From the NCBI GenBank assembly GCA_043821285.1, contig JBDRCZ010000017.1, positions 15,947-79,946 on the forward strand: a stretch of 64,000 nucleotides of DNA. Reading direction: 5' to 3'. Positions 40,447-59,960 of the stretch are shown piece by piece. A program made the translations under genes and the position numbers. Source of the stretch: Candidatus Omnitrophota bacterium (GTDB taxonomy: Bacteria > Omnitrophota > Gorgyraeia > B26-G9 > JBDRCZ01). The notes under the pieces were generated by a model that saw nothing but the letters and a program-made list of their open reading frames with translations, searched no databases and was not told the origin of the DNA. The first letter of the stretch is position 1. Each line of letters begins with the position of its first letter.

Positions 40447-43400
40447 AAATTGCCCGTTCAATTTCAAACAAATCTGCTATCTCTCTCTTCTCCAGTTTTG
40501 TATCTGATCCATTTATGCCTACCCTATAGCCAGTGTGTCTTTCTTGGGGAGCAACTATTAGAGAATAAAGAGCGTGTAGTAACAGCATATCAGAATCAGA
40601 AATATGAGGGTCTATATTTTTTGCTTCTAATATTGATTCATCATCGCTTATTATTTCTTGTATAATTGTTTTTACTATATCTCTATCTTCAGCTCTGCAT
40701 TTTTCATGAATTGCATTCAGACATTGTTCAAAAAATGGTCTGAGCATCATAAGCTGAACATTATCTTCTTGTGTATATGCATTGGCAACTGCTTTTGTAA
40801 CTGTTTCTAAAACAGTTTGCCGGTAATCTGGTCTTACCGTATAGATATTATCAAAAAAGATAAAAGTCCCGGCTGCGGCTTGTGGCATTATTGTCTTGTT
40901 TAGTATCTCATTAATAACATTTCGAGGAAAATATACTAAAATACTTAATAATTTATCTATTGTAGTATTACTTGGGGTTAAACCTTGCTGCTGGATCAAC
41001 TCTTGATATTTTCTTCCTATGATTCTATGCATAGATTCAAGACTTCTTCTATTTGCATTTATCATTAAATTATTTCCTTTAACTGCTGTAACTAAGTCCG
41101 TTAATTCGCTTCGTATCATTTCTCGTTCTTTCTCAAATACATCCGTATCTTCGTTCCTCTGAGATATAAATAACCCTAAAAATTCAAGTTCTAATGCTTT
41201 TTTAAAGGCATCTTCCGAAGTAAATGCGTTTAATCTAACAGTAATATTTTCTAACAACATTAGCTCAAAGCTGGTACCTTGACGAAAAATATGTTTTAGA
41301 AATTTTTCTGCATTAGTAAATTCGGGTGAAAAGATGATTTCTCCACTGACACCATCTACTGTTTTCTCCATCACTTCATTTATCAAATTACCTACTGAAT
41401 CTAAGTTGTGAAACTCGTTTAATCTATTTTCATCTTGTATAACAGCTCTTAAATAAACCTCCATTCTTAAAAGGTAATCAGCCAAAAAAACACCATCAAT
41501 TGCAAAACGTATATTTTCATTCGTATCTTGAGTTCTTGCAGTCAAGGCTTGATAAAGAAAATCATCTATATCGGTCAACATTCTATAAAAGATTTCCATT
41601 GCTGTTTCCTTATCCTGTTTTAGAGCAAGTTCGAGGACATTATTAACATTTGAAAAATCTCGTGAAATATACTCCTTAATTACATCACATAACGCATTGA
41701 ACAGTGGTTTTTTATCACGACGGTAAATAGCAAAACTTAGCCTAATAAATGCTGCTAATATCTCATGGGAATTAAATCCTGAATTTATTAAATAACTTTG
41801 CTCCTTTTCTATATAGATTGGTATAATTTTAGAAACGTCATATCCCGCAATAACTGTGTAAGCAACTGCAGCAAAAATAAGATTATGTGTTTCTGCATCA
41901 TGTTTAGGAATGTTTATTCGTTGTAAGATTTCTCCTAATACTTCTCCTGCCTCAGTAGTTCTCTCCTCTTTTCCTTCAATCTGCGCTTTTATTTTATTAG
42001 TAAAAAATTCAAAAACAAAATCAGGTTCTGCCTTAAGATACGCTTCTATTGTTTCCCAATCTGCTGCTAATAAATTACGCAGTTTTTGGATTTTATCTTG
42101 AACCACGATTAAGTTATTTCGTAGATTGCTTATTTTTTTCTGATTTTTTCTCGTTTGTTTTTGCTCTTTGTTTATGGTTTGCTGAATAGTTCTTTCATTG
42201 CTTTGGCGACGATTAAGTGCCTGCGTCCTTGTAATAACTCCTTCTAAGAGGATTGTTACTTCAGAGAGTTTTTCTCTACGCGCTTTTACTGCCGGGGGCA
42301 TATCTAAAAGTAGAGGTTCCCTTGTTGTCACTGGAGCCTGCCATGCTGGAAGTTCTTCAGATGCTACTTGCATAGCAGCAGCGCCTTGAAGGACCTGAGG
42401 ATATAATGAATGTTTTTGCATTGGGTCTTCAACTAACATAAGCTCACAACTTTGAGGCGGTTTGAGAGCATTAATTCTATTTTGGATAACTACTCCCAAT
42501 CCCCAAGCCCATTCTGCTTGACTTTTATATAAATCAACTAAGGCTTCAATATCCTCACTTTCGTTTATAATTGCGGTTATTCTCTCTACCAGAGGAGCCC
42601 GGCTGTTTCTGTTAGGATAGGTATTAAGCATTTGATATAATTCAGGTATATTACTTAAATCATTATAACCGAGTAATCTTTTTCTCAGTACCTCTGCTAT
42701 TACCCCCCTTATTTGCTTACATCCGTAGGTATATTTATTTATAGAATTATCTGTAAGTAAACGAAGCAGGTTTTCGATATCTAAGGAAAACACTTGCCTG
42801 ATAATACCGAAAATAATATATATTTCTACTTCAGAGTGAATTTTTTTACTAAGTAAATTAGCTAATGCAGCAAGTGCCTCGCCCCCCCATTTACTAACCA
42901 TCTCCTGAGCAATAGCTTGAGCTTGTGTTTTGTCATTATTTTCTGCTTGCTGACGTTTAAATCTATCGGAAATTGCGGTTAATCGTTCAATGCCATCTTC
43001 AATCGAAGAAACAGTTAGGTGTATTTCTGATATTTTTCCTTGAGAAGCAATACTATTACTTAATTGTGCGGCTGCTGCTTGCTTTGTTTTCTGGGGTAAC
43101 CTTGGATTTCGTGACCACTCTGAAAGCAAGCGATCATTTACTTCTGCTAATCTTTTTGCAGTGCTTAACGCCTTAATTCTATACCAAAGATAATTATTCC
43201 AGTATTCATCGTCCCATTCTTGGCTTAGATACACATCAACTAAGGCAACAATATCTTGATTATTTTTTATTATATGTTTCATCCTTCTTCTTGCCAGATC
43301 TTTAATGTCTTCGTTCGGACATAATGTTTCATTATTAATAACATAATATAATGCAGAAATACTTGTTACGTTTCGAGGAATGCTAACAGTTTTTATGATA

Positions 43401-46400
43401 ATTATGCTTTTAATCATACCTCTGGTAACTTCAGCTCCTTTAGTTTCTTGCTGATTCATCGCAGTATATAAATAAAATATTTCTGTAACAGACATTGAGT
43501 TAAGACAATTACCAAGTGCCGACATAGTTATTTCTATTGCTTCTTCATTAAGAAGATTCGTATCAATTTGCTCAGCAAATTGTTTAATAATTTCTAAAAA
43601 CTCATCTTTATCCTTTGTGTTATACATTTCTGTTATAATATTTTTAACTTCTTGAGGAGCGGATGCAATAAAGGCTTGTATTTCTTCGGGTGTCTGATAA
43701 TAATCAGCCAACTCTTTCTCCAGCTTTTCTATTTGTGACGCAATTGTCGTATCTAGTTCTGGTTTATTAATTCGCAGCCACTCTATTATTCTTTTTCTTA
43801 CTGTCCGATCTTGGATGCCAATCAATAATCCTAGTACATGCACTACCTCGTTTTCTAAACACATGTATTGTGACAAGATGTCGTTAAGTTCCGTATTCGC
43901 TGCATTGCTAAAGAATAGGTATATAGTACCAGCAATATGTTTTTGTATGCCCGTAAGTCTAAGGATTTTTTCACTCAAAATATTTCTTATGCTCGAACCC
44001 CAGCTTCTTTCTAAATATAATTCTACTGCTGTCTTTAAATTATCACATTCATTAACCAGTTCTCTTATTCTCATCCTTAGCAGTGCCCGGGTTCCTTCAT
44101 GGTACTCTCTATCATTGAGCAAATCTTGCAGTGGTTCGATACTAGCAATGCCTTGATATTCAGCAAGGCGCTGTTTGATCGCTTCTATTAATTGACTACT
44201 ATTGTCCCCATGATTTAACCTACGCAATAGTTCCTCTAAGGTGAGAGTTTTTATGGGGTCAAAATCTGCTAGTAGTTCTGCAAAAGTTACTTGATTATCA
44301 GAAGGCGCTGCAACTTCTCTTGTCGGGGGGGCATCCCTGTTGGTGTCGGCTCTTTGATTAGCGTTTCGCCATGCTGCTCTTAAGGCACGTGTATCTGACT
44401 GTGATGGTGGCTCTGGAAAATGTACCACCTGAGCTGCATTCGACGGAGCTGTTGTTCGTACAAACCTATCTGGAGGGGATAGTGATAGATCGAAAGCAGC
44501 TGCTAGTTTTTCTAATGAGTTTAGAGTCAAAGGGTTATTGTTTCCTGATGGAGGAACTGTATCTTTTGGTAAAGCAACTTCTGCTGTGTCAGTCCCTTCC
44601 TTTTCTGGTTGTCGCAAGTCACCTGATTGTAATGGTACGGTGTATGCTTGAGGGTTATTTTCTTTTTCCCTTTCCCTTTTCCTTTTCTTTCTTGCAATAG
44701 GAGGACTATCTGCTCTATATTGTTTACGTGCTTTCCTTTTCATTAATACAACTTTATCTTCTTCTTCATCATCATCATATTGGTCACTATCATCTATTGC
44801 ATTTATTAACTCCTCTATTATGAGCATTAAAGCAATCCGTATATTTTCTTCTGATAATTCACCCGAACCCTCTTGCATCAATTGCTCAATTTCTTCCTCT
44901 GACAAAGTTAAATCGTTTATAACACCAATGAGCTGTTCAATGATTTGACCATTCTCGTGTGCGCTTTCAATTATATTATCTATAGCATCTTTTAACGCTT
45001 CATGATATGTATCTTCATCAAGTAGTAAATAAGTTTTTACTAAAAAACTAAGATCTATTTCTAAAGCACTATTTCTCGTTGATCTTACGCCGGTACTACC
45101 AAGCAAGCATAGTAAACTAAATCCCCAAGCCAACCCCTTCCAAATAAAAAATGCCAGTGCATCTGGTCTTGCGGCAACAAAGTGTACTACTGGATATAAT
45201 AATCCTTCATGTCGTGCAAGAGAATTTATGATTGTAAATTCGATGTAGTCGATAATAATGAGCATAGCTGATTTAGCACCAGTAACCGCCTTTTTAACTA
45301 ATTCCCAAACATTTGGTATAAATTGTATCTGCGGTTGTATATATAAAGGAAAGGTCATTATTAAGGAAAGACCTAATATAGCGTGTATTGGTAAATGCCC
45401 TAAGTTTACACTAACCGGGATGCCCGTGATATTACTGATTACCTCTAATATAAAAGGTGCAATCAATAATAAAAAGAGGCCATTTATTAATGGATGGGAA
45501 TTCAGGGTAACACTCTTACCAGCATTACTTTCTTGATAAAATTCTCTTACCGCTCTATTTGTTTTTATTAAAGCACGTAAATCAATAATGATATTTCCAT
45601 TTCTATCTTTACGAAGGTCATGTTTATTTTCCTTGTCAGATAAAAATATCTTATCATCTTCTTTCACAATTTTATATTCCACGTTACCAATCCAAATAAT
45701 ATCATTTTCCCTGAAAGTTACTTCTTTCCTTAAAATATCAATGATTAATTCCTTGCTGTTTGCTTCGTTACGCAGAAGAATAGTATTACCAGCTATTGCA
45801 TATTTTGTATTATCTATCATTCTGTCTTGATGCCACCATGCTATTCTGAGTTTGTAACCATCACCCTTTCCCTCAGTTTTTATTTTTTTTAGACCATCTG
45901 TTGGGAAAAATTCTAACCGTTCTCGTAAACGCTGGATTTTAGTATTGTATTGTCTTATATCTAAAATTCGCTTGTTATGAATGTTCTGAATTACAGCTAA
46001 TAACTCGTTGTCCTTAATACTTGCTAATAATGCGCCATAAAAGGCCAGACCTAAGCTATCTACTCTTAAAACTATTCTTTCTATTTCTGTGTGTTTGTTT
46101 TTGTTAAATAGAGTTGTTAAATAATTAGCCAATATCAGTACAAATTCCCCGCCCCACCACTTTATAACCTCAACCAATTGACCAAGAGACTGCGGTGTAA
46201 TATTTTGATGTTCATTCAGGAGATTTTCAATAATTTGTAATACTGCAGAAACTGAATATACACCAAATTGTTCGGCCAAAGCTTTGATTATTGCCAATCT
46301 TTGCGTTTCATCAAAATTATTAAGATTAGCTTCTTTTTCTTTCATCATCTTAATATAATTTTCGGCTGAATCCCAATCTTGAGTAGACTTATTAGTATCC

Positions 46401-47536
46401 CAATACTGTACTGGTTTGCGATACACTGCTTTTGCTGCTACTAATATATTTTTTTCTTTCTCTGTAAGTGCGGTGTCATCATTTGTCCATATCCTAATCA
46501 TTCCGTGTCTTGGTGCTGTTATATAAAATGAAATTTTTGACGCAAGAAACTCTTCCCATTCTTCTGGAGAAGGCACAGTTGATAAATCAGCACGTAAACG
46601 TATAAAACGGTTATAGTTTTTATTTTCGTTATTAATTATGTCTGCCGGAAGCAGCCGCCGGCCAACATGAATTTCTATATTAGAGTTTTCTGGTATTGGT
46701 TGGGTATAACGGCTTCGATCAGGGGTTGAAACATTCCAGTAGTTTTGTGTTGATATACCAAATCTCAAAGATTCGTTATCTATTTTTATGCTCTCGGGAG
46801 CAAAAAACATCATCATAATTGCATGCGCAGGTAAACGTATTGCATCAATCCAGTAGTGAATTCCTTTACGATAACTATACTCAAGGATAATTTTAATACC
46901 ACGTTCAAACAGAACTTTTAATCCGGGTAAAAAGGCAATATTATTAAATACGCTGTTGGTATTTAATCTAAAGACTTCCATATCCCTGGGGACAGTAAGC
47001 ACTATTCGCGGAGACGCACCTTTAATATCTATTTTTCCATAAGTAGTAATTTCACTTTGCAAATCACGCGCCAACCCAAGCAAACTTAGAAAGTCAATTT
47101 CTTTTAGAACCGGGGGTATTCTTTCAACCGTCTCATCATCTGGACAAGGTATTTCTGGAATTTCCCTAATATTTAATTGATTGTTTTTTTTAGAAATTAC
47201 ATAAGAACGTTGTTTACCAGCTGCGCCTGTTGTTACAAACAATACTATCGAACCATCATTCGCAAATCTTTTCTCGCATGCATCAAACTCAAACTTATCT
47301 TTAATATAACTTACGCCAACATGTCCTTCTGCCCAAGTATATGCATCACTTATTTTTTTGTAAAGCATAATATTTTCTGCAAATAGAGGGTCATTTACTT
47401 CCAAAGGCGGGGCAAGATGGGTATGTAGACCTTTTAGATTGCCGCCGGCGGCCCATGAGATGTCTAAGCATAGAAAGGCATTGATTAATATTATGGAAAT
47501 TAGTCTAAAACAAATTGTACGTGTTAAATTATTCAT
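40445..47536 (-). CDS. giant-array member C (2363 aa): leader, TM bundle, basic/acidic low-complexity region, C-terminal module paralogous to member F, EIERAI tail
   Basis: N-term MNNLTRTICFRLISIILINAFLCLDISWAAGGNLKGLHTHLAPPL; RKKRKREREKE basic stretch; ~450-aa alignment with F; C-term ...DLFEIERAI. Confidence 0.7.
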   Translation of the reverse strand: MNNLTRTICFRLISIILINAFLCLDISWAAGGNLKGLHTHLAPPLEVNDPLFAENIMLYKKISDAYTWAEGHVGVSYIKDKFEFDACEKRFANDGSIVLFVTTGAAGKQRSYVISKKNNQLNIREIPEIPCPDDETVERIPPVLKEIDFLSLLGLARDLQSEITTYGKIDIKGASPRIVLTVPRDMEVFRLNTNSVFNNIAFLPGLKVLFERGIKIILEYSYRKGIHYWIDAIRLPAHAIMMMFFAPESIKIDNESLRFGISTQNYWNVSTPDRSRYTQPIPENSNIEIHVGRRLLPADIINNENKNYNRFIRLRADLSTVPSPEEWEEFLASKISFYITAPRHGMIRIWTNDDTALTEKEKNILVAAKAVYRKPVQYWDTNKSTQDWDSAENYIKMMKEKEANLNNFDETQRLAIIKALAEQFGVYSVSAVLQIIENLLNEHQNITPQSLGQLVEVIKWWGGEFVLILANYLTTLFNKNKHTEIERIVLRVDSLGLAFYGALLASIKDNELLAVIQNIHNKRILDIRQYNTKIQRLRERLEFFPTDGLKKIKTEGKGDGYKLRIAWWHQDRMIDNTKYAIAGNTILLRNEANSKELIIDILRKEVTFRENDIIWIGNVEYKIVKEDDKIFLSDKENKHDLRKDRNGNIIIDLRALIKTNRAVREFYQESNAGKSVTLNSHPLINGLFLLLIAPFILEVISNITGIPVSVNLGHLPIHAILGLSLIMTFPLYIQPQIQFIPNVWELVKKAVTGAKSAMLIIIDYIEFTIINSLARHEGLLYPVVHFVAARPDALAFFIWKGLAWGFSLLCLLGSTGVRSTRNSALEIDLSFLVKTYLLLDEDTYHEALKDAIDNIIESAHENGQIIEQLIGVINDLTLSEEEIEQLMQEGSGELSEENIRIALMLIIEELINAIDDSDQYDDDEEEDKVVLMKRKARKQYRADSPPIARKKRKREREKENNPQAYTVPLQSGDLRQPEKEGTDTAEVALPKDTVPPSGNNNPLTLNSLEKLAAAFDLSLSPPDRFVRTTAPSNAAQVVHFPEPPSQSDTRALRAAWRNANQRADTNRDAPPTREVAAPSDNQVTFAELLADFDPIKTLTLEELLRRLNHGDNSSQLIEAIKQRLAEYQGIASIEPLQDLLNDREYHEGTRALLRMRIRELVNECDNLKTAVELYLERSWGSSIRNILSEKILRLTGIQKHIAGTIYLFFSNAANTELNDILSQYMCLENEVVHVLGLLIGIQDRTVRKRIIEWLRINKPELDTTIASQIEKLEKELADYYQTPEEIQAFIASAPQEVKNIITEMYNTKDKDEFLEIIKQFAEQIDTNLLNEEAIEITMSALGNCLNSMSVTEIFYLYTAMNQQETKGAEVTRGMIKSIIIIKTVSIPRNVTSISALYYVINNETLCPNEDIKDLARRRMKHIIKNNQDIVALVDVYLSQEWDDEYWNNYLWYRIKALSTAKRLAEVNDRLLSEWSRNPRLPQKTKQAAAAQLSNSIASQGKISEIHLTVSSIEDGIERLTAISDRFKRQQAENNDKTQAQAIAQEMVSKWGGEALAALANLLSKKIHSEVEIYIIFGIIRQVFSLDIENLLRLLTDNSINKYTYGCKQIRGVIAEVLRKRLLGYNDLSNIPELYQMLNTYPNRNSRAPLVERITAIINESEDIEALVDLYKSQAEWAWGLGVVIQNRINALKPPQSCELMLVEDPMQKHSLYPQVLQGAAAMQVASEELPAWQAPVTTREPLLLDMPPAVKARREKLSEVTILLEGVITRTQALNRRQSNERTIQQTINKEQKQTRKNQKKISNLRNNLIVVQDKIQKLRNLLAADWETIEAYLKAEPDFVFEFFTNKIKAQIEGKEERTTEAGEVLGEILQRINIPKHDAETHNLIFAAVAYTVIAGYDVSKIIPIYIEKEQSYLINSGFNSHEILAAFIRLSFAIYRRDKKPLFNALCDVIKEYISRDFSNVNNVLELALKQDKETAMEIFYRMLTDIDDFLYQALTARTQDTNENIRFAIDGVFLADYLLRMEVYLRAVIQDENRLNEFHNLDSVGNLINEVMEKTVDGVSGEIIFSPEFTNAEKFLKHIFRQGTSFELMLLENITVRLNAFTSEDAFKKALELEFLGLFISQRNEDTDVFEKEREMIRSELTDLVTAVKGNNLMINANRRSLESMHRIIGRKYQELIQQQGLTPSNTTIDKLLSILVYFPRNVINEILNKTIMPQAAAGTFIFFDNIYTVRPDYRQTVLETVTKAVANAYTQEDNVQLMMLRPFFEQCLNAIHEKCRAEDRDIVKTIIQEIISDDESILEAKNIDPHISDSDMLLLHALYSLIVAPQERHTGYRVGINGSDTKLEKREIADLFEIERAI

Positions 47537-47855: not shown

Positions 47856-47879
47856 AAAAAATTGCCGCAGCAATTTTTT
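47856..47879. terminator. palindromic terminator at 3' end of member D
   Basis: AAAAAATTGCCGCAGCAATTTTTT; adjacent CCTTCCATTAGGGAGG. Confidence 0.5.
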
Positions 47880-50800
47880 AGATTGCTTGTTCTACTGCCA
47901 ACATTTCATTCCACTCTAACTCTGTAAGTGCAGGGGGTTGTTTAGGCATTGTTGTCAATTGTCCTGGGTTATTATCATGAGGATCCAGTCTTTGCTGCTC
48001 TACAATCTTTATTGCTGCTTCAATAATCGCTGCAGTGTCCATCTTATGTGCACGGTATAATATCTCGTGACTTCTTGCGGATTGTCCCCAACCTTGGATT
48101 CCTAACGAAGTTACAGTTGAACCAGTTGTAAGCAGAGATGAAGTTACTACCTTACTTACTGCTCCGCTTAATATTTTTGGAGAAGCGTCTTGAACAGTAA
48201 TTATTGGCACTCCCCGTTCAAGAAGAGGTGGTAAAGCTTCATCGATTAAATCCAATCTGGTCAAATTTATTACTTTTGCGGTAATATCTTGACTTTCCAA
48301 TTGTTCGCTCGCGGCAATTGCAAATTCCACCATTGCTCCGGCAGCAATAATAATAATATCGCTATTTTGTCCGTTTTCTCTTGGATCTTTAATTACATAA
48401 GCACCTTGTTCTGGACTGGGATTTTCTCCTCTATTTAAAACTGGAACATTTTGACGGGTAAGCTGAAGATAAGAAGGTCCTTTACCATCTAATGCCCTGT
48501 GCATAGCAAAATCTACTGCTTCTTCAGCCTCACGGGCATCTGCAGGTATAAAACCAGTCATTTTTTGCAAAAAAGAAATATAGCGAATAACGCCAGCAAC
48601 GATTACTGACTGATGAGTAGAACCGTCTGGCCCAACGCCTAAGCCGGCATGACTTAACGCAACAATTACCGGTAGTTTTGCCCGGGCAATCACAATTATT
48701 TGACTAATCATTCGGTTAGCAAAACAATCAAAGGTTGCGATAACTGGTATCTTACCATATAATGCTAATCCAGCAGCAATTCCTGCCATTGCTTGTTCTC
48801 TTACTCCGGATGGAACGTATCTTCCATTGGTGTTATGACGAGAAAAAATGCCAAAGTCCCTAGCAAACCAATTCAGTCTTGTAGAACTGGCAATGTCCGC
48901 GCAGAAAGCAATAATCTTTTCGACGCGTTTTCCCCAGTCAAGCATCCTGTTACCAAAACCATCACGTGTAGCAAAATTCCTATTTGCTTGGTATCTAATT
49001 TCTGCCGGTGTTTGTAGCATTGTCATTTGAACCGGCTCTGGCTCTTGTGTTTGTTTAATGTTGCTATAAATAAGCAGATTGAATTCCCCAATCTTATAAG
49101 GAACCATTCCATTCAATGCTTCCATAATTGTTGTGGCCATGATGTGTTCATCAAAACCCCGGGTAATAATTAAAACAGGTTTTCCTGTATTATCCTTGTT
49201 TAGCTGTTCAAAGGTTTGACCTAAGATTTCAGCCTGTTCTTGATTATTATTAGCATTGAGCTCAATCACTCTCCAACCATAAGCTTGCCAAATATTAACT
49301 AATTCCGTGTTTGTCTCTGAAGCTTGAAGGACTAAGCAGAGATTATCTATGCCATTGTGTGCGGCGAATCTAGCTGTTTCTGCAAACTGACCTTCTCTTT
49401 CTTCTTTTTCCGTGGCTAAAGCAATAACTCTGCCAGATGCTGTATCCATTTTAGCTCCAAAAGCTATACCTGCGGCCAGAGAAAGACGCATACCCGCAGG
49501 GAATATTTCTTGAGGACTAAAATCTATTTTCATAAGCCCGTCCGTGGGTTTTTCTTTTCCATCAACTAATTCTTTTGCTACTTCTATTATATTTTCAATA
49601 TCCTTGTCACTCATGGACCAAACAACGGAACCTGCGGTTTTAGAAGATGAAGTTACAGTCCTGCTTACCGCATCACCTAAACATACTGGCAATCCATCAT
49701 AAATTGTAAGAATACGGCTTCCTGGCTCAATATACTCTAAGAGCTCACTTCCTGCACCTAATGAGTCTAATTGCGTAACATTTATGATCTTAGTCATCGT
49801 ACCTTGTGATTCTAACTCATTACTGACTTTTATGGTTTGATGAAGACTTTTACCTGAAGAAATAAGAATAACCCTCTTTTTTGCCGTGTCCCACCCTTCA
49901 GATTGACTTATAACATAGGCACCTTGCTCTGGCTGGGGATTTTCTCCTCTATCTATAACCGGAAGATCTGCAGAACTTAAACGAATATAAGAAGCAGTGT
50001 ACTCATCTGGGATATTAAGTGATGTAGGGGCTTTATTTGTTATTTTAGCCAATAATAATGCATTTTTTATTGCCATATCAGTCAACTCATTAGTTTCATT
50101 AGGATCCCCTGGTTCTAACGCAATTACATTATGCATCAGGTCCATAACTCCTGGGGTAAAACTTAACTCTTCAGATTCAGCCGCTAAAATAAACGGTACC
50201 CTTGCCTGAGCATTTATCCTTAATTGGTCTAACATTTTCATCGCATCATTTTCCGGCAGAAAGACAATCGGCAGCATACCCGAATAACCAAACCCAGCAG
50301 CAAAACTGGCTAAGTGCTGTTCTCTATCCTCAACTAAGAAACATCGCTCGATGAGTTTATTTCTTATATCTTCATCAGTAATCTGTGCAATAAATTCATC
50401 AATAAATCTTTGTTTAGAATCGGAATTATTAAAAATAAATACTATCCGTTCATCTTTTTCTGCCCACTGGAGTAGTCTATTTTTAAATGCAACAGATGGA
50501 GAGACTTCCTCATCCTGTGCATAGTTGGTTCTATCTGGTATTGTTGTCGTGTCTGTTTTTTGTAGAGTACTCTCTTTTGATAAATTGTTTTCTTCTTGTT
50601 CTGTCATTTGGTTATCTGAAATAAATCTATCTACATCTGTTGAAAATCCATAAAAATTCATTTGTTGACTAATATTTTCAATTGTGTTTTCTATTTGGGG
50701 GATAGCTTCAGATAGTTCTTTATCATTTAATGCTCTACCGTGAAACGCGGTTGGATCATCTTCCATAAAATCTACGCCTTTACCTTTTTTTGTCTTGGCA

Positions 50801-53553
50801 ATAATTGCTGTTGGCTTGTTTTTAATGTTTCTTGCTTCTTCACAAGCCGCGATAATTTCTAATGGTTCATGGCCATTAATTTCAATAACATGCCAGCCAC
50901 AACCTCTCCACGAACCTGCGACATCCGCACTATCTACTTCTTTAGTCAAGCTATCAATTTGTGCGCCATTAGCATTTACAAATAAGGTAAGATTATCTAA
51001 CCCTAATTCCGCAATATGCCTGGCAGCCTCTGCATATTGTCCTTCCTGTTCTTCCCCATCACCGGCAATAGCAAAGACGTTGGAGTCACGTCCATGCATT
51101 TTAGCTAGAAGCGCCATACCCGCGGCATTGGAGAGTCCCATACCTAAGGAACCGGTCAAGGCTTCTATACCACGAGTACAAATCCAGTCAGTATGTCCAG
51201 GAAGTCCACTGTTTAACTCTCTTAAATGGGATAATTGCTCTTTTGAAATATAGCCAAGTTTAGCTAAAATAGAATAAACTGCTGGCGCTATATGCCCTTC
51301 AGAAATAACTAACCGGTCACGGTCTGGCCAGCGCGGGTCATTTGGTGTATGATTCATAATCCGCGTTCCATCGGAATATCGTCCAAGATATAAAGTGACC
51401 AGTATCTCAGCCGCAGAGAGCGAACCTCCTGGATGTCCTGAACCAGCTATATTAATCATCTCCAGAATATCATTACGGCACATTTCTGCGATTTTCTTTA
51501 ACATCAAGCTTTGGCGCTGCTGTTCTATATAGTCTTTTCGCCAAAAAGCACCAATTATCAAAACACCAACAAGAAATATAGTATATGCGATCAATAAATG
51601 TATTGGAGATTGAAACAGTGTCATTATTGGTATTGAAATGGTTTCAAAACGATGGCTAAATGTTTTTAGTAGTTCGACAAAAGCTAATAAAATCGCACCA
51701 ATTGTGCCCAATAAGGCATAGGGGTTGAATTGTCGAAGGGTTAAATCTTGAGGAAATATATCTGAATTGTGGGGTGAAACATTAGAATCATCCCCTTTCC
51801 TTTTTAAATATTCTATTGCTCCATTAACCACCAAAAGAGCCCTAAAATATGCCTCTAAATAATCTTCTGCTGTTGTAAGAATAATTTTTTGATCATCTAA
51901 TCCAGAACGTGCTATCGGGTGACCTAAAATGTTTTCGTTTTCAGCCATTCTTTGTGAAGCAATCTTCCGCATATGTGTCCAGTTATGAAGTTGATTTACG
52001 CCTTTCAGCGGTAATAAGAGAGGGTTTCTTATACCCTGTGAGGTATAAAATTTTTCAACATCCTCGTCTTTGAGACCTGTCTGCTCTGGCACAAAATGAG
52101 GAGTATCACTAGGATATGCAGCCTCTGCCAAAAAAACATTTGCTGTTATTCTCCCCGAAGAATAATGTTCTGTTACACATTTTAGGTAAAAAACCAATGT
52201 TCCATTTAAAGCAGAGTCAATAAAGCATACTTGCGATGTATTATTATCAATAATTCCTTCATCAATTAACTGCTCATAAGTTTGTTTTGCTTGTTCAGCA
52301 AAAACCGTGTTTGTTTTTAATGTTTCTTCAAAGGATTGTCTTAATTGTGGATAGAAATTTTCCGGATCTCCTTGTTCTGTAGTATTGCGGCGAACTTTTC
52401 GCAATGTGTCTTCAATAATCTTAAAATTGTCGCGTTTTCTTTTTTCCGGAGTAGGATGATCATCTCCTATATAACCTAACATTTTTCGATCAAGATAAAA
52501 TACAAAAGAATTATCAGGGGGAGCCCCTTTTGTCAAAAGACTCAAATAATACTCGGACTCATAGTAAATTGCTCCATCACGTGCTAAATAAACTCTTCGT
52601 CCTTCAGCAGGTAATTGTTCTAATAAATAAGGGATGATTTTAGCTGTGCCTATTAACCACATAAAAGAATCTTTTTTTTGTCTTGAAGTCAAAAAATGGC
52701 AAAGGCTTCTTAGCTTTATATTCAAACTTCCAGTAAATAAGCCTTGATTTCTTACACCTTGTTCTGTCATTACCAATAACTCTTGCTCTCTTCTTCGTAA
52801 TTCTTCTGCTATTTCTACGTTACTTCTCCATCTCAATTGGTCTGGTTTAAGAACTTGATAATGCGTGCGTACCTCATGCCCTTCGATCGGGCTTAAAAAA
52901 TGTATCGGAAATGTTGGACTTATTTCTGGTACATTAATAGAGGTTAACATCATTTCTAAATCCATGGCTATACCTTCTTCGCCGAGTGGATGTCTTAATA
53001 CTGATAATGCGCGCTCTTTAACTTTATCATTGGGGTCTTCCAATATTATTTTTTTCAAAAATTCAACAACCTTTGTTTTAGCTGTCTCACTTTTGTTCCC
53101 AACAATTCCCAAGAGCCGTATTAAATTACTGCGTGGATTGTCTAACACAACACCACCACGATAAAGAAGATCATCAGGGTCAATAATGGTTGGATCATCC
53201 CAAGCAGCGATTAAGGCATTTATCAGTATAATAGCATCGAGACTTAATAATTTTGGAGCTTCATTTCGTCTCCAAATATTAAACTGCGAAAAAGTTAATC
53301 TTAAAACTTGCGTTAGTTCTTCCCTTTTTATCTCTATAGGGTACTTATTTACTGATTGTGTAGATATACCAAGTGTATTTTGTTCAAAAGGCTCTGTAAG
53401 TGAAGACTTACTTATCTCTAAAGGAGGCGAGAGGTGGGTGGACAAATTTTTCAAATTACTATTTGCCGCCCATGAAATGTCAAGACATAAAAAAGAGTTG
53501 ATTAATATAAAGGCTGTTAGTTTGAATAAAATGTCCCGTTTTATTTTTTTCAT
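47878..53553 (-). CDS. giant-array member D (1891 aa): leader, HEAT-like repeats, TM, two tandem transketolase-like units, EQAI tail
   Basis: N-term MKKIKRDILFKLTAFILINSFLCLDISWAANSNLKNLSTHLSPPL; TK TPP motifs GSGHPGGSLSAAEIL and AIAGDGEEQEG; TK Pyr motif GPDGSTHQ; C-term ...LAVEQAI. Confidence 0.75.
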   Translation of the reverse strand: MKKIKRDILFKLTAFILINSFLCLDISWAANSNLKNLSTHLSPPLEISKSSLTEPFEQNTLGISTQSVNKYPIEIKREELTQVLRLTFSQFNIWRRNEAPKLLSLDAIILINALIAAWDDPTIIDPDDLLYRGGVVLDNPRSNLIRLLGIVGNKSETAKTKVVEFLKKIILEDPNDKVKERALSVLRHPLGEEGIAMDLEMMLTSINVPEISPTFPIHFLSPIEGHEVRTHYQVLKPDQLRWRSNVEIAEELRRREQELLVMTEQGVRNQGLFTGSLNIKLRSLCHFLTSRQKKDSFMWLIGTAKIIPYLLEQLPAEGRRVYLARDGAIYYESEYYLSLLTKGAPPDNSFVFYLDRKMLGYIGDDHPTPEKRKRDNFKIIEDTLRKVRRNTTEQGDPENFYPQLRQSFEETLKTNTVFAEQAKQTYEQLIDEGIIDNNTSQVCFIDSALNGTLVFYLKCVTEHYSSGRITANVFLAEAAYPSDTPHFVPEQTGLKDEDVEKFYTSQGIRNPLLLPLKGVNQLHNWTHMRKIASQRMAENENILGHPIARSGLDDQKIILTTAEDYLEAYFRALLVVNGAIEYLKRKGDDSNVSPHNSDIFPQDLTLRQFNPYALLGTIGAILLAFVELLKTFSHRFETISIPIMTLFQSPIHLLIAYTIFLVGVLIIGAFWRKDYIEQQRQSLMLKKIAEMCRNDILEMINIAGSGHPGGSLSAAEILVTLYLGRYSDGTRIMNHTPNDPRWPDRDRLVISEGHIAPAVYSILAKLGYISKEQLSHLRELNSGLPGHTDWICTRGIEALTGSLGMGLSNAAGMALLAKMHGRDSNVFAIAGDGEEQEGQYAEAARHIAELGLDNLTLFVNANGAQIDSLTKEVDSADVAGSWRGCGWHVIEINGHEPLEIIAACEEARNIKNKPTAIIAKTKKGKGVDFMEDDPTAFHGRALNDKELSEAIPQIENTIENISQQMNFYGFSTDVDRFISDNQMTEQEENNLSKESTLQKTDTTTIPDRTNYAQDEEVSPSVAFKNRLLQWAEKDERIVFIFNNSDSKQRFIDEFIAQITDEDIRNKLIERCFLVEDREQHLASFAAGFGYSGMLPIVFLPENDAMKMLDQLRINAQARVPFILAAESEELSFTPGVMDLMHNVIALEPGDPNETNELTDMAIKNALLLAKITNKAPTSLNIPDEYTASYIRLSSADLPVIDRGENPQPEQGAYVISQSEGWDTAKKRVILISSGKSLHQTIKVSNELESQGTMTKIINVTQLDSLGAGSELLEYIEPGSRILTIYDGLPVCLGDAVSRTVTSSSKTAGSVVWSMSDKDIENIIEVAKELVDGKEKPTDGLMKIDFSPQEIFPAGMRLSLAAGIAFGAKMDTASGRVIALATEKEEREGQFAETARFAAHNGIDNLCLVLQASETNTELVNIWQAYGWRVIELNANNNQEQAEILGQTFEQLNKDNTGKPVLIITRGFDEHIMATTIMEALNGMVPYKIGEFNLLIYSNIKQTQEPEPVQMTMLQTPAEIRYQANRNFATRDGFGNRMLDWGKRVEKIIAFCADIASSTRLNWFARDFGIFSRHNTNGRYVPSGVREQAMAGIAAGLALYGKIPVIATFDCFANRMISQIIVIARAKLPVIVALSHAGLGVGPDGSTHQSVIVAGVIRYISFLQKMTGFIPADAREAEEAVDFAMHRALDGKGPSYLQLTRQNVPVLNRGENPSPEQGAYVIKDPRENGQNSDIIIIAAGAMVEFAIAASEQLESQDITAKVINLTRLDLIDEALPPLLERGVPIITVQDASPKILSGAVSKVVTSSLLTTGSTVTSLGIQGWGQSARSHEILYRAHKMDTAAIIEAAIKIVEQQRLDPHDNNPGQLTTMPKQPPALTELEWNEMLAVEQAI

Positions 53554-53752: not shown

Positions 53753-55231
53753 CAGTACTTTGTTAAAAATCAGGTCTTTTCAAAAAAATCATTTACGTAA
53801 GTCGTGAAAACTCATAACTTATGTAATTTCAATACTTTACGTTAATTTTTTCCTTGACAATATCCACAACTCCTGCTATGGTATATAGTTGTAATCAAAC
53901 CACCGTAACACACAACAGGAGGTGGATATGGGTATTTTTAATCTCACTATTTCGGTAATCAATAATTTCTTATTTCGTTTTAAACCTGCCTTCTCAAAAA
54001 AACAATTTATCGTTTTCTCCTTCCTGATCTATGCTTTGTTTAAAGACTACAAGAGAAATTCCCTTTATGCCCTCGCCTCTAAAACTCCAATCAACTATCA
54101 GGCTTGTCAGTACTTCTTATCTGAAGGAAAATGGAGTATCGATGATCTTAATAATATAAGGTTAAAAATTATTGAACATCAAAGAACTACTTCTGCTACT
54201 TCCTCCGGCGTCTTAGTTATTGATGATACTTCTCCTAAGCCTTTTGCTAAAGCTACCGCCGGTGCTAAACGTCAACACTGTGGTGTCTTAAATCGTGAAG
54301 AAATCTGTAATGTTGCTGTATTCTCTGCCTTCGCCTCCAAAACTAAACGCTTCCCGATAAACCTTAAATCTTATCTCCCCGCTGAAAAATTCTTATTTGG
54401 CAAAGAGGATGTAGATTTTAAAAGTAAGCTCGATCTTGCCCAAATATTAGTCGATGATGCCTTAGAAAGAAAAATTAAATTCTCTTCCCTCGTCATAGAT
54501 GCATGGTATGCTCAGTCTTCACAATTCCTTGAGTTTGTTCACTGCCAGAGAAAACTGCCCTTCATTGGTGAATTAAAGTCCAATCGTAACATCTTCTTTT
54601 ACCATCCGCTAAAGCGGAAACACTGCTGGATCCAGCAGGATGAGCTGGTGAAACTCATCAAAAAACATTATCCGCATAAGTGTAGGTTTTTTACCTCCAC
54701 GAGCAAAGATGGTAAGAAGAAGTCTTGGGTCTTCTACACCTTCAAGGGACTGCTGAAAGATTGTTCTGTTCCCTTAAGCATAGTGGTGATCTTTGGTAAG
54801 TGGGATAATCAGGATGATAAGAATGTTCATATCCTTATCTCCAATCAGACCCGCCTGGCTACTAAGACCATCATTTCCACCTACCTGCTTCGTTGGGGAA
54901 TAGAGCTTATCTTCAGGGAGCTCAAGGATGTCTTCTCCTTTGACCAATACCAGGTTAGACATACCAAACAGATCGAACGTTACTAGACACTATGCCTTAT
55001 TGCATGGAGCCTGTTATATTGGGTCAAACAAAATGCCTATCTTACCAAAATCCTTGAGCATAAACCTGCTACCTTCTATGACTACAAACAGGCCATTGAC
55101 TCCTTACTCCTTTATGATGCTCATCAGTCTCTTTCAAAGAACAGTCATCTTGCTCAGAAATATTTTAAAATTAAATCGGATAATTTTAAACAGCAAATCG
55201 CTCGCGTTGCCTGATTTTTAACAAAGTCCTG
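53753..55231 (+). mobile_element. IS4/IS701-family insertion sequence (~1.48 kb) with 22-bp imperfect TIRs and 8-bp TSD TTCTATCA
   Basis: IRL CAGTACTTTGTTAAAAATCAGG vs reverse complement of IRR (CAGGACTTTGTTAAAAATCAGG); direct repeat TTCTATCA at 53745-53752 and 55232-55239; DDE transposase ORF inside. Confidence 0.75.
53922..55221 (+). pseudogene. IS4/IS701-family DDE transposase interrupted by in-frame TAG (codon at 54984-54986)
   Basis: LVIDDTSPKP, LVIDAWYAQS, RWGIELIFRELK catalytic motifs. ORF stops 19 aa after the E motif and a conserved-looking hydrophobic tail (LCLIAWSLLYW...) continues in-frame after TAG. Confidence 0.55.
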
Positions 55232-55287: not shown

Positions 55288-55312
55288 AAAAATTGCCGAT
55301 GGCAATTTTTTT
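55288..55312. terminator. palindromic terminator at 3' end of member E
   Basis: AAAAATTGCCGATGGCAATTTTTTT. Confidence 0.5.
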
Positions 55313-58300
55313 AGATTGCCTGTTCCACGGCCAAAACCGTATTCAATCCTACTCCTTCAAGTAGCGGAAGTAAAGACATCAATTTCTGCATAGGCTTTTC
55401 ACCCTGCTGTCTGCAACCATCTGGAGTGTCTTTTCTTTCTCCATCTTCCATGAAACTCTGAGAAGCTAAATATCTCATTAGTTCTCCTGTTTGATTAGGA
55501 TTGGTTACTCTTACTATCGTAATATTTTCAACTTTAAGAACTAATCGATCATTACCTCCACTCCAAAATTCATCACCAATATATATGTCAGCTGCTGCAT
55601 CTATTACAGCCGCGGCTTTATCTTCTAAGTTTTCAGTATGTTCTTCTACAAAATCTCCCATTTTTTCATCATAGATGAATTTATGATACCCCGGTTCAGA
55701 GGATATGGTATAAAGAACAAGATTTTTTAATAAACCCTGCTTATCTTTCGGGATAGCAAATAATACCTGGCCTTTTACATTAAATATGTTTCCGCCAGTA
55801 ATTATTCTTAGCTTATATCCAACCTCAAGTAAGTTAAGGAATGCATCCAGATTATCTTCTCCGATTATTCCCCAGTAAGGAACAAGTGTGCCATCCATAT
55901 CTATTCCTATAACCTGAATTTCTTCTAACGGTACATGGCCATTTATAATATCATGGACATTTAATGGAGTATTTTGGGTTGTATCTACTGGGGATAGCGT
56001 GCCAAGTGTTTGTTTTGGGACAAAACTGTTTTCTTGCTCACGCTTTGCTATAAATTTACGGTGTGCAAGGACAATAAAGGTAGAAAGTGCAAGACCTTTA
56101 CCCTGCAATTCTTCTACTGTTTCACGGTTATCTTTAAGCTGCGGATCTAAATATGCCGCCAATAATTGCATAAGCAAAGGTTCATTAAGTAATAAATCTA
56201 CTCCCACGTTAACTTCTTGATAAAGTTTTTTTGCCTTTACATAGTCTGAAAAAAGTTCTCCTAATAACGAGGATTCATTGGTTAATTCCGCATACAAATT
56301 ATCGAATATTTCTTCTACAGATATTAATATATCATTGTACATTTCATCAGAAAGATGGCTTCTTAAAAATTCTTCTTGTTCTTGTACTTTCCACGGAGGT
56401 AGATATTTACTTCTCAAACCGTATTGATTTAAACATTGCTCTAACTTATAAAAGATTATTTGTTCAAGAACACTCTCATTATCAACTTTACTGATCAAAT
56501 TTTCTGGCAAGCGGTTTTTAATAAGATTTTTAAGCAGTGTACCAGTCGCCGATGTACTCAATCCGGTTCCATCAGCAAGTGAGTTTGGTGTCCATTCAAA
56601 AGGCAGCCATTCTGACACAACTATTCCGTGAAGATACTCTCTTCCAAAAGATATTCTTCCTCTTGTTCCTAAACCAAAAGTGTGAAGTTGAATGCCAAAT
56701 TGTTCGTTAAGCTTAGCATTTGTAACAGTGGAAGAGTCAGAATTTTTAAGAAGAGCAGCGAAATGTGCTTCAACCTCTGCTAATGAATCAAGCAAACACC
56801 TTGCTTTATGAAGAGTTACACCAGTTTCAACAATATCATCAATTATAAGAACGTTGCGGTGTTCTCTGAGATACTCGACGACCTTTGTATCATTTAGAAA
56901 TAACCGCAGGTCTTCAGGAGAATCTAAAGAGTATACATCTCTTTCAAAACCCAAACGCACCCTTTCAGCTTCTGTCAATAATGACCAAATTATTGTTGTT
57001 AAATTTAACTTTTGAGTAATAATCCAACTTTGGAATTCAGGTATTTCCTTATTAAATAAGTTATTCGCTTTTAACTGAGTAAGCAAAATTTCCAATGCTT
57101 TGGCAATTGGATCAGCTCCTTTTGAGGGAAAGATAACTAAATTTATATCGTGTTGGATTAAATATTTAACAATAGGAAGAAGTATAGGAGCAAATTGCAA
57201 AACTTGTATGTCTGTTCCTAAAGAATCTATGTCTCCAATTTCTTCACCTAATGCAGCTTCGACCGCCTGCCGAAGCTTTCCAGTATATCTGGAGCGATAA
57301 GGACTACGCAGATATCCTTCAATCGTTGGCAAGTTTTTTGCGATCTCCTTTTCAAGCTCTTCTTCAGCCCTCAAAAACATCTGATGCCCTGTTTCTGTCC
57401 TGAATAAAGTTTCACCCAGAAAATTGCCGTCATCTTTGCCTGATTTTTCATAAAGTCTATACTCTTCTTCAAGGCGCTCTTTATTAGTTTTAAATCTGGC
57501 TCGGATCTGTTCAGGTGTTATTTCTATTCCCGCAGCTTCTAAATCAGCAATAATCCCTTGATAAGTACACATAAATAATCTGTCTGCCTCACGCCATACT
57601 GTTATTAATCTATAAAAAGAAGAAGCATTAGCAAAAGGCCCTTCAAAATTAAACAAAAACTGTCCTTTTTCATATAAAGAAGTATCAACACCCATATTTC
57701 TAAGCTCTACTAAGGCCTGTTCAATAGAAGGATTATCATGAGCTTTTACCACACCACAGATTAAATTTACATTTACATCAGTTGCACTTAAAATACCGGT
57801 TGAAATTAATTGTTGGATTAATTCCCTAATCATTTCGGGGGCTTTTTTCATATGCGCAAGCCTAAACGCGATTGTGTTCTGCGCTAATTCTTTTGCCTTT
57901 AACGAATTTCTCTGTTCAATTTTCTTGCGTATTTGAATAATTCTTGCCCGTGAGCCTTCTAACTTGGCGTACCCAATATCATGTAATAAGGCTAATATTG
58001 CTGCGTTTTTAAATTCTTCATAGGTAAAATCTTCTCCTAATCCAATCTGCACCGCGTTCTCTAAGACTTGAGTATGATGATTTACAGGGTTGCCATTTGC
58101 TCCAGCTTTAAAATGAGGTAAGGCGCTCCAAAAAAGTGTGAAGAGAATATTTTGAATTTCTTGTTTTTGCTGGTCTGTAAATGTGCGGTCTTTTTCAATG
58201 CGGCTTAGTGCATTTTCCAAATTCTGAACTGCTAAACTTTTCTTACACTGAACAAGATAGTAGCCATTCTTTTCTTCAATTACTGCTTCTAATCCATTGT

Positions 58301-59036
58301 CTGTAAGAAATTGTTCAAATTCTGCTTTATTAGAAAAACTAAATCGACCACGTCCAGCGTTTATTGGTTCGGCAATCAATATTTCACCTTCTGAACTAAC
58401 TGCCCGAATATACTCCTTTAATAACTGATCACGTTCTTCACGATTACTAAACATGGTAAAGAACCGAATGCTGACCACTTTAGAAAAACTTCCGTCTTTA
58501 AACCGCATGTCCAAGGCACTGGCTTTTACCAAATCAACATTTTTGCTATCTTGCTTTCTATTTTGAGCAATGTTAAGTAAAATTTCATTGGTATCTAACC
58601 CTGTTATATGTTTGCAAAATTGAGAAATATAAAAAGTGAAATGTCCGGAACCACAACCTATTTCTAAAACTTCATCATCATTATCAATATTAGCTTCAAG
58701 CCAGTCTTTAGGGAAGTCTACAAGATAAGATGCAAGCGTACGATCATAAAAATAGGAAAAATATATCTTTTTGAGCCAATCAACGAGTCTTTCAGTCCAA
58801 GACCTGTGAGGAGAAATATCTCGTGTATCGTTAGGCAGCTTTAGCTGAGTTATATTTATTGTTTCTGCAACGTGTTCTTTAAGAATAGAATTATTTATTT
58901 GCAAAGGCGGAGCAAGGTGGGTGGACAAATTTTTTAAATTACCATTAGCAGCCCAGGAAATATCTAAGCATAAAAAGGCGTTAATTAATATAATCGCTGT
59001 TAGTTTGAATAATATATTTTTTTTAATGTTCAACAT
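55311..59036 (-). CDS. giant-array member E (1241 aa): leader + class I SAM-methyltransferase + HD phosphohydrolase + type I phosphoribosyltransferase + HAD hydrolase domains, EQAI tail
   Basis: LEIGCGSGHF (MTase motif I); VNHHT...LLHDIGY (HD); NVLIIDDIVETGVTL (PRTase); VIGIDMDGTL...GDEFWSGGND (HAD motifs I/IV); N-term MLNIKKNILFKLTAIILINAFLCLDISWAANGNLKNLSTHLAPPL; C-term ...LAVEQAI. Confidence 0.75.
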   Translation of the reverse strand: MLNIKKNILFKLTAIILINAFLCLDISWAANGNLKNLSTHLAPPLQINNSILKEHVAETINITQLKLPNDTRDISPHRSWTERLVDWLKKIYFSYFYDRTLASYLVDFPKDWLEANIDNDDEVLEIGCGSGHFTFYISQFCKHITGLDTNEILLNIAQNRKQDSKNVDLVKASALDMRFKDGSFSKVVSIRFFTMFSNREERDQLLKEYIRAVSSEGEILIAEPINAGRGRFSFSNKAEFEQFLTDNGLEAVIEEKNGYYLVQCKKSLAVQNLENALSRIEKDRTFTDQQKQEIQNILFTLFWSALPHFKAGANGNPVNHHTQVLENAVQIGLGEDFTYEEFKNAAILALLHDIGYAKLEGSRARIIQIRKKIEQRNSLKAKELAQNTIAFRLAHMKKAPEMIRELIQQLISTGILSATDVNVNLICGVVKAHDNPSIEQALVELRNMGVDTSLYEKGQFLFNFEGPFANASSFYRLITVWREADRLFMCTYQGIIADLEAAGIEITPEQIRARFKTNKERLEEEYRLYEKSGKDDGNFLGETLFRTETGHQMFLRAEEELEKEIAKNLPTIEGYLRSPYRSRYTGKLRQAVEAALGEEIGDIDSLGTDIQVLQFAPILLPIVKYLIQHDINLVIFPSKGADPIAKALEILLTQLKANNLFNKEIPEFQSWIITQKLNLTTIIWSLLTEAERVRLGFERDVYSLDSPEDLRLFLNDTKVVEYLREHRNVLIIDDIVETGVTLHKARCLLDSLAEVEAHFAALLKNSDSSTVTNAKLNEQFGIQLHTFGLGTRGRISFGREYLHGIVVSEWLPFEWTPNSLADGTGLSTSATGTLLKNLIKNRLPENLISKVDNESVLEQIIFYKLEQCLNQYGLRSKYLPPWKVQEQEEFLRSHLSDEMYNDILISVEEIFDNLYAELTNESSLLGELFSDYVKAKKLYQEVNVGVDLLLNEPLLMQLLAAYLDPQLKDNRETVEELQGKGLALSTFIVLAHRKFIAKREQENSFVPKQTLGTLSPVDTTQNTPLNVHDIINGHVPLEEIQVIGIDMDGTLVPYWGIIGEDNLDAFLNLLEVGYKLRIITGGNIFNVKGQVLFAIPKDKQGLLKNLVLYTISSEPGYHKFIYDEKMGDFVEEHTENLEDKAAAVIDAAADIYIGDEFWSGGNDRLVLKVENITIVRVTNPNQTGELMRYLASQSFMEDGERKDTPDGCRQQGEKPMQKLMSLLPLLEGVGLNTVLAVEQAI

Positions 59037-59935: not shown

Positions 59936-59960
59936 AAAAAGTTGCCATAGGCAACTTTTT
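59936..59960. terminator. palindromic terminator at 3' end of member F
   Basis: AAAAAGTTGCCATAGGCAACTTTTT. Confidence 0.5.

Follow-up and report, generated by a model that had tools for sequence, protein, structure and literature searches.

Here we describe a large protein of Candidatus Omnitrophota that carries two transketolase (TK) units in tandem, encoded by an open reading frame (ORF) that we call ORF D. The DNA analyzed, hereafter the window, is a 64-kb section of an 86-kb contig (JBDRCZ010000017.1) from a Candidatus Omnitrophota metagenome-assembled genome (MAG). The left half of the window holds ordinary chromosomal genes (thiC, guaA, dnaE, hisS, a gene for a PilB-like ATPase, and aroB), a thymidylate-synthase-like gene is also present, and a row of large minus-strand ORFs starts at ~29.8 kb. 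Within this row, ORF D occupies positions 47878..53553 (minus strand, as are all ORF D features below) and encodes 1,891 amino acids (aa) in one uninterrupted frame over 5.7 kb. Based on the ORF call, Pfam, and NCBI identity, it comprises a leader, an N-terminal region without homology, a transmembrane hairpin, the tandem TK module, and a C-terminal VEQAI tail. The protein was 100% identical to an NCBI MAG protein named 'transketolase C-terminal domain-containing protein [Candidatus Omnitrophota bacterium]', and a word-index search with full-length ORF D, in an index that proved lossy, matched only itself and one paralogue, the latter via the leader. A first-pass annotation of positions 48004-51486 (aa 690-1850 of ORF D) had placed two TK-like units inside a 'giant' protein and had seen no separate tkt gene. 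With 1,891 aa, ORF D does not count as giant by the usage of the field, though it is large, and no TK-like ORF other than ORF D was found in the 64-kb window, to which the latter statement applies.

The C-terminal domains of ORF D were those of TK, as first annotated, rather than those of DXS or of E1 enzymes. Specifically, Pfam models located Transketolase_N at aa 686-949 (E 5e-51, 174 bits), Transket_pyr at aa 1527-1704 (E 3e-35), and the TK C-terminal domain at aa 1717-1832 (Transketolase_C_1, E 1e-17), and the rival models were far weaker (DXS_N, i.e., DXP_synthase_N, E 1e-5 and 25.5 bits; E1_dh, E 5e-10). The characteristic motifs were found at aa 706 (GHPG), 831 (GDG), 1646 (THQ), and 1203 and 1709 (GENP). 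Among solved chains, the nearest to the Transketolase_N domain was the N-subunit of the split TK of Carboxydothermus hydrogenoformans (6yak, E 5e-62) and the nearest to the Transket_pyr/C-terminal half was the C-subunit of the same enzyme (6yaj, E 3e-29, vs. 4e-25 for the DXS 6xxg), with human TK also among the closest sequences. The DXS model TIGR00204 reached 142 bits (E 2e-41) against a cut-off of 466 and spanned only the Transket_pyr/C-terminal half. A DXS or E1 identity was therefore ruled out on the TK-type score of the first domain (174 vs. 25.5 bits) and on the TK substrate residues that are kept.

Six TK domains can be delimited in this part of the protein. In unit 1, PP1 (aa 686-949; 50707..51498), the intact domain that binds the diphosphate of thiamine diphosphate (ThDP), was defined by Pfam, the residue map described below, the match to 6yak, and a predicted local distance difference test (pLDDT) score >90. 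It is followed by a degenerate pyrimidine-binding domain, Pyr1 (aa ~1016-1200; 49954..50508), delimited by internal alignment, the residue map, and a pLDDT of ~90, and by the first C-terminal domain, C1 (aa ~1201-1330; 49564..49953), seen as a weak Pfam match (Transketolase_C_1/C, E 1.7e-5), a profile match up to position 621, and a confident model. Unit 2 starts with PP2 (aa 1354-1470; 49144..49494), a shortened dead remnant that covers only profile positions 128-245 (alignment, residue map, pLDDT 84-97) and gave a marginal Pfam signal (E 0.066). It continues with Pyr2 (aa 1527-1704; 48442..48975), an intact pyrimidine-binding domain by Pfam, the residue map, and the alignment to human TK, and ends with C2 (aa 1705-1852; 47998..48441), the second C-terminal domain (Pfam, pLDDT >90).

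That the two units are related by duplication was evident from their comparison. BLASTP of aa 676-1345 against aa 1346-1891 paired aa 804-1314 with aa 1354-1817 at 30% identity (E 4e-50), which is far beyond chance. A TK profile hidden Markov model (HMM), built from 70+ single-copy homologues, matched ORF D three times (aa 675-1312 to HMM 6-621, aa 1354-1465 to HMM 128-245, and aa 1512-1852 to HMM 320-655), so that the protein is read as 1 + 0.8 TK copies; in unit 2, the PP domain is missing its first ~125 residues as well as a stretch around the last PP histidine. All of the single-copy homologues aligned to both units in the same pattern. The nearest non-orthologous relative of PP2 was PP1 (40% identity, compared with <=34% for any other TK compared), which argues that the tandem arose by internal duplication and not by the joining of two unrelated TK genes. 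Together, these sequence comparisons support an old internal duplication of a short-type TK as the origin of the C-terminal 1,200 aa of ORF D.

One piece of evidence originally put forward for the duplication did not stand. A GENP(Q/S)PEQGAYVI linker in both units had been taken as its proof, and it corresponds to a 58-nucleotide tract with 83% nucleotide identity (E 1.5e-12) at the Pyr/C junction of both units (copy 1, LPVIDRGENPQPEQGAYVI region, 49910..49967; copy 2, VPVLNRGENPSPEQGAYVI region, 48392..48449). Outside the tract, the units are ~30% identical in protein and retain almost no nucleotide similarity, and the tract is not shared by the orthologue P0122 described below. Because it is far more alike than the rest of the units and is missing in P0122, the tract looks like a recent, lineage-specific patch of local intragenic gene conversion and not like a mark of the ancient duplication.

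Each active site of TK combines a PP domain with the Pyr domain of the partner protomer, and the roles of its catalytic residues are known from structural work on the yeast, E. coli, and human enzymes. We aligned both units to human TK (with a human sequence consistent with the 6rjb alignment) and read off the catalytic positions. In unit 1, the PP positions were complete: H707, H754, H787, and H938 correspond to the conserved human histidines H37, H77, H110, and H258, and the ThDP motif GDG-X(~26)-N(N) is present as GDG at aa 831-833 (with D832) and NAN at aa 860-862 (with N862). The Pyr side of the same unit has lost R318 (S1020), F389 (P1100), F392 (D1103), H416 (S1127), and R474 (S1194), the equivalents of D424 and Q428 (H481 in yeast) are deleted, and the TK motif (..H.G.G.DG.THQ) is gone, leaving S1044 and E1078 as the only survivors.

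The reverse holds for unit 2. On its PP side, three histidines are deleted, GDG is replaced by TEK (E1382), and the N185 equivalent is S1412, so that the ThDP motif is absent, and all nine Pyr positions are kept (R1530, S1557, E1586, F1608, F1611, H1635, D1643, H1647, and R1700). Among them, R1530, S1557, H1635, R1700, and D1643 are equivalent to the sugar-phosphate residues R318, S345, H416, R474, and D424 of human TK, and E1586 and the F1608/F1611 aromatic pocket accompany the TK motif, SHAGLGVGPDGSTHQ, at aa 1634-1648. The DGSTHQ within this motif (aa 1643-1648) lies at nucleotides 48610-48627, one codon away from the 48613-48630 first given. Whereas a symmetric TK dimer has two equivalent sites, the sequence of ORF D provides one complete site only. 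By this residue map, exactly one complete site can assemble from the unit-1/unit-2 pair (PP1 with Pyr2), and the symmetry-related site (PP2 with Pyr1) would be dead, as it is destroyed on both faces and partly deleted. The complementary degeneration of a pseudo-heterodimer, with every catalytic residue kept in the intact-looking halves, had been proposed in the first-pass annotation and is borne out by the residue map and by the same pattern in a second genome.

This second case emerged when 1.84 billion cluster representatives were searched exhaustively with HMMER, which gave 17,838 matches; architecture was assessed in the best 150. Among the matches, P0122 (3,487 aa) aligned without a break from query residue 4 to 1169 (1,166 aa), with 49% identity by BLASTP. 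It is UCD14944.1 ('tetratricopeptide repeat protein, partial') of Ca. Omnitrophota bin140, encoded on the 1.5-Mb chromosome CP070797.1. Like ORF D, P0122 has the same tandem, the same PP2 truncation boundary (HMM 128), a changed GDG (GEK), a dead Pyr1, and an intact Pyr2; unlike ORF D, its Pyr1 has lost even the glutamate (G1587). Identity between the two proteins was 66% in PP1, 54% in Pyr1, 38% in C1, 55% in PP2, 56% in Pyr2, and 48% in C2 but only 28-33% in the linkers, and the C1-to-PP2 linker is conserved in length and position. Conservation is thus similar in the dead and the live halves, which suggests that the dead ones are kept under selection, presumably as scaffold.

The surroundings of the module differ between the two proteins. 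In P0122, it lies in the middle of a protein of at least 3,487 aa, flanked by tetratricopeptide repeats and a P-loop domain and with a multi-transmembrane region downstream. Neither a leader nor an EQAI tail can be seen, both ends being masked. The ORF that contains P0122 (CP070797.1 914895-937396; 3,597 codons open) enters masked N stretches at both ends, which indicates that the protein is longer than annotated, and it contains NNSRLISSPVAGDRLAAAAA twice. We also note that the GDG of the dead site is replaced by xEK in both proteins (aa 1382-1383 of ORF D, 1875-1876 of P0122) and that the glutamates equivalent to E160/E165 (EEREGQFAE) are kept in PP2. Speculatively, the former metal/diphosphate pocket might be occupied by the lysine, and the acidic cluster, located at the protomer interface, may have remained necessary.

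No other protein with a complementary tandem TK was found among the best 150 of the 17,838 matches. A pattern scan of one genome per species (GTDB) returned CP070797.1 only, and a scan of JGI metagenomes gave no further tandem TK and one weak, ordinary match. P0144 (1,143 aa) combines a complete TK with a second, PP-only domain (HMM 12-278) and so represents a TK domain duplication of another type. In the literature searched, no description of a tandem, pseudo-dimeric, or naturally single-site TK was found, and we know of no TK that is tandem and complementarily degenerated or naturally single-site.

AlphaFold models were in line with the fold of each unit. For the 1,182-aa TK module with its natural alignment, in which MAFFT put all homologues on unit 1, pLDDT was mostly >90 in unit 1, including the degenerate Pyr1 (~90) and C1, and the model superimposed on single human TK chains (4kxu/3mos) with a target-normalized TM-score of 0.83 over ~688 aligned columns. 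Unit 2 modeled alone (aa 1336-1861) had a mean pLDDT of 88 and a predicted TM-score of 0.90, with aa 1336-1348 disordered and the PP2 remnant at 84-97, and matched a human TK chain with a TM-score of 0.74 over 541 columns. According to the models, each unit is a TK protomer, complete in unit 1 and truncated at its N-terminus in unit 2.

We regard it as probable that the ORF D module is a pseudo-heterodimer of two fused TK units with a single ThDP site per chain, in which the units pair, probably within the same polypeptide, and which is tethered to the membrane, we infer on the cytoplasmic side, where it probably still acts as a sugar-phosphate ketol transferase. Unit 1 (PP1-Pyr1-C1) would contribute the PP-side histidines and the site for Mg2+ and the diphosphate of ThDP. 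Unit 2 (shortened PP2-Pyr2-C2) would contribute the glutamate that activates the cofactor, the aromatic pocket for the pyrimidine, and the residues that bind phosphate and sugar, with the dead halves PP2 and Pyr1 presumably retained as structural scaffold. Ketol (C2) transfer between sugar phosphates is most likely retained. The presence of thiC, guaA, aroB, and the thymidylate-synthase-like gene in the window points to a need for ThDP, ribose 5-phosphate, and erythrose 4-phosphate.

Several points weigh against this interpretation. The top NCBIfam match of ORF D, the transketolase model NF004559, scored 478.8 bits and thus stayed below its cut-off of 488, and the scores for the remaining NCBIfam TK equivalogs were far under theirs; a sub-cut-off score is, however, expected for a split and degenerate arrangement. 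Only two examples are at hand, and the conservation argument is one pairwise comparison. In the module model, Pyr2 has a pLDDT <50, there being no alignment depth for it, and thus gives no direct evidence of intramolecular pairing. The unit models are homology-driven and hence not independent evidence. In addition, a naive topology of a cleaved leader and a two-helix hairpin would give the TK an extracytoplasmic location, in which neither ThDP nor sugar phosphates would be expected, and a weak extra hydrophobic segment at aa 99-117, if it spans the membrane, would place it inside. We favor the cytoplasmic face because of the cofactor and substrate needs of the domains.

Among the alternatives, it is conceivable, albeit unlikely, that the pairing is intermolecular, i.e., that paired units come from different chains, unit 1 from one and unit 2 from the next, in a head-to-tail dimer or higher oligomer, with two live and two dead sites per chain dimer. 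This would be consistent with TKs being obligate dimers and with only ~20-40 residues separating the structured part of C1 (HMM match up to aa 1312) from PP2 (from aa 1354 on). Conversely, the covalent link creates a very high local concentration that favors intramolecular pairing, ORF D is membrane-tethered, and the length and position of the linker are conserved in P0122.

With regard to the chemistry, the module could be a live ThDP enzyme of the TK superfamily that catalyzes another reaction, such as a DXS-like condensation, a sulfosugar TK reaction, or the transfer of glycolaldehyde by which TK-like enzymes act in natural-product pathways. The Pyr2/C2 half also matches DXS (TIGR00204, 6xxg), the TK equivalog score is slightly under its cut-off, and the gene context offers no pathway clue. 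We nonetheless judge this to be distinctly unlikely, considering that PP1 is unambiguously TK-type, that the phosphate-binding set (R318, S345, H416, and R474) and the equivalents of D424 and yeast H481 are all present, and that the closest relatives are annotated as TK or fused, as TK, with transaldolase.

We likewise have little belief in the view that the whole module is a pseudoenzyme whose TK folds serve as a scaffold or as a sensor of sugar phosphates or ThDP. Half of each unit is clearly decayed, function loss does occur in such proteins (five of 21 related embedded TKs, described below, have no metal-binding Asp, GDG being changed to GGG), and no pentose-phosphate partner domain is fused to ORF D, unlike in P0003 with its transaldolase. 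Against it stands that 6/6 PP-side and 9/9 Pyr-side positions survive in the complementary halves of both ORF D and P0122 despite ~50% divergence; random decay is disfavored because exactly one complete site was spared in both proteins. An assembly or gene-calling artifact (a collapsed or duplicated region, or adjacent genes joined by a sequencing error) has a negligible chance of being correct even for a sequence from a MAG, given the low identity of the units (30%), an ORF that stays open for 5.7 kb, and the presence of the same architecture in the independent 1.5-Mb chromosome assembly CP070797.1.

A fused pseudo-heterodimer would set ORF D apart from known TKs, which are obligate dimers and have two equivalent sites in a symmetric homodimer or an (alpha-beta)2 assembly. 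The short-type and split-gene TKs (6yak with 6yaj; human 4kxu/3mos) are the closest in sequence and fold, and ORF D presents the full catalytic set across PP1 and Pyr2; unlike them, it fuses two diverged protomers on one chain with one site destroyed. DXS and the 2-oxoacid dehydrogenase E1 share the three-domain (PP/Pyr/C) ThDP fold and have weak matches to ORF D, but the PP domain of ORF D scores far lower with their models than with that of TK, and the TK-specific substrate residues are kept. Tandem-derived pseudo-heterodimers with one degenerate interface site are known from the mammalian adenylyl cyclase C1-C2 pair and from heterodimeric ABC exporters with a degenerate ATP site; one of the two interface sites stays catalytic in such proteins, and the other is dead or regulatory. 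By analogy, ORF D may likewise be a duplicated and fused homodimer with complementary mutations and one live site, although the folds and the chemistry of these systems are unrelated to its own and there is no evidence for a regulatory ligand at its dead site. The evolutionary logic is thus familiar from other families, and the fold and chemistry are those of TK.

To the best of our knowledge, active sites occur in pairs in all characterized TKs and in ThDP enzymes in general. Communication between the sites of ThDP enzymes (half-of-the-sites reactivity, non-equivalent cofactor binding) has been debated for a long time, and consensus is lacking on cooperativity in TK (PMC6834573). A natural, covalently fused TK that has kept one site and lost its counterpart by deletion would give a direct answer as to whether a lone site is functional, and would reveal which parts of the second protomer are required purely as scaffold. 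It could further be a template for engineering single-chain, single-site TK biocatalysts, and it would be a clear case of domain-level subfunctionalization within the multi-enzyme long proteins of Omnitrophota.

Upstream of the TK module, the first 610 aa of ORF D had no homologue in Pfam, NCBIfam, or PDB, and the HEAT-like repeats initially suggested are unsupported, with no match for aa 31-610 in these databases. The region behind the leader (aa 49-610; 51724..53409) contains, by hydropathy, a weak hydrophobic segment at aa 99-117, which coincides with a strong hydrophobic segment in paralogue B. Directly upstream of the TK module, hydropathy supports the transmembrane segment noted in the first pass, in the form of a hairpin of two hydrophobic helices (aa 611-629 and 646-673; 51535..51723; Kyte-Doolittle peaks 1.91 and 2.48). 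The N-terminal leader itself (aa 1-48; 53410..53553) consists of KKIKRD, a hydrophobic core, DISWA/A, and NLKNLSTHLSPPL.

This leader of ~48 aa, ILFKLTAIILINAFLCLDISWAAGGNLKGLHTHLAPPL, is common to five minus-strand ORFs, A to E (29833-32820, 33141-39581, 40445-47536, 47878-53553, and 55311-59036). It is 55-89% identical among them, with largely synonymous nucleotide differences, and the bodies of the ORFs are unrelated. A C-terminal [IV]E[QR]AI tail, which in ORF D is VEQAI-COOH (47881..47895) as identified by sequence comparison, is carried by all six large minus-strand ORFs, i.e., by the five leader-bearing ORFs and by ORF F (59959-63891). We recognized no known sorting-signal family in the combination of leader and tail. 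By eye and by hydropathy, the leader looks Sec-like (KKIKRD as a positively charged n-region, ILFKLTAFILINSFLCL as an h-region, and SWA/A as a candidate cleavage site), and in paralogues A and E it is the sole hydrophobic segment, yet the cargo domains are of cytoplasmic type. A twin-arginine (Tat) signal was rejected, as no RR motif occurs in any of the five leaders. For ORF D, initially described as exported and tagged, the leader resembles a Sec signal, but the topology is ambiguous and export is not established.

Other members of the row showed features of their own. In paralogue E, the leader is directly followed by a domain of methyltransferases dependent on S-adenosylmethionine (SAM; aa 108-236, E 3e-16) and a weak phosphoribosyltransferase match (aa 725-767). 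Paralogue C (aa 1734-2297) and ORF F (aa 288-874) have a 590-aa module in common (36% identity, E 4e-98), to which no Pfam family was assigned. ORF F has no leader at its called start (TTG, position 63891, near the window end), and its true start may have been miscalled.

It is possible, though rather doubtful, that the leader is a true export signal and that leader and tail mark an Omnitrophota family carrying cytoplasm-type enzymes (a single-site TK, a SAM methyltransferase with phosphoribosyltransferase, and others) to the periplasm, a surface coat, or a host cell. The one-site TK would then be an adaptation by which an otherwise obligately dimeric enzyme can be exported as one self-sufficient polypeptide.

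TK domains are also embedded in 21 further large proteins of 1.3-5.4 kaa (thousand aa), and those with a source name are all from Omnitrophota. Their partner domains include transaldolase (P0003), phosphomannose isomerase (PMI), and iron-containing alcohol dehydrogenase (Fe-ADH). In 12 of these 21 single TKs, the catalytic positions match the reference at all 15, and in 5 more the change of GDG to GGG is the sole difference among these positions. The embedded TKs are thus mostly intact, which suggests that TK modules in such proteins are under catalytic constraint. The GGG change, by which the Mg2+-binding Asp is lost, was seen in P0003, P0124, P0125, P0150, and P0177. The other catalytic residues are kept in P0003, P0124, P0150, and P0177, with further changes in P0125. 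It may reflect altered cofactor binding or incipient pseudoenzymes.

A signal-peptide-like N-terminus (e.g., ...IVLIAFLLNTVASDLAFAQ) was present in ~16/21 of these proteins, including P0003, P0124, P0127, P0130, P0131, P0140, P0148, P0150, P0161, P0177, P0182, P0186, P0189, and others. By hydropathy, most of them have no other strong transmembrane segment, and many end ..AA/..SA/..GV. The localization paradox is therefore family-wide, with cytoplasm-type enzymes behind signal-peptide-like starts, and it becomes sharper with catalytically conserved ThDP-, SAM-, and ATP-dependent domains behind such leaders.

ORF D fits the multi-enzyme long proteins of Omnitrophota in its origin, its leader and transmembrane hairpin, and its TK module. 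For the long proteins of this phylum, a 'multi-enzyme metabolic cluster' class has been described, transmembrane helices or signal peptides were reported in 94%, and the same topological puzzle was discussed (bioRxiv 10.64898/2026.06.07.730766). Transketolase is mentioned neither there nor by West-Roberts et al. (bioRxiv 10.1101/2023.11.21.568195). Like these long proteins, ORF D combines a signal-like N-terminus and/or transmembrane helices with metabolic enzymes of cytoplasmic type. Its long-protein relatives differ from it in having a single complete TK, and ORF D differs from the catalogue in its length (1.9 kaa vs. classes of at least 10 kaa).

Mobile elements are also present in this part of the window. 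An IS701-family transposase (53922-54986, plus strand; NCBIfam E 9e-49) separates ORF D from the methyltransferase paralogue E, and an IS200-like Y1 transposase (27148-27954, minus strand) is located at the opposite edge of the paralogue row. The PilB/T2SSE-type ATPase of the left half (11321-12718, plus strand) has an N-terminal PilZ domain, and a haem-NO-binding (H-NOX) protein is encoded just downstream of the paralogue row (28969-29508, minus strand).

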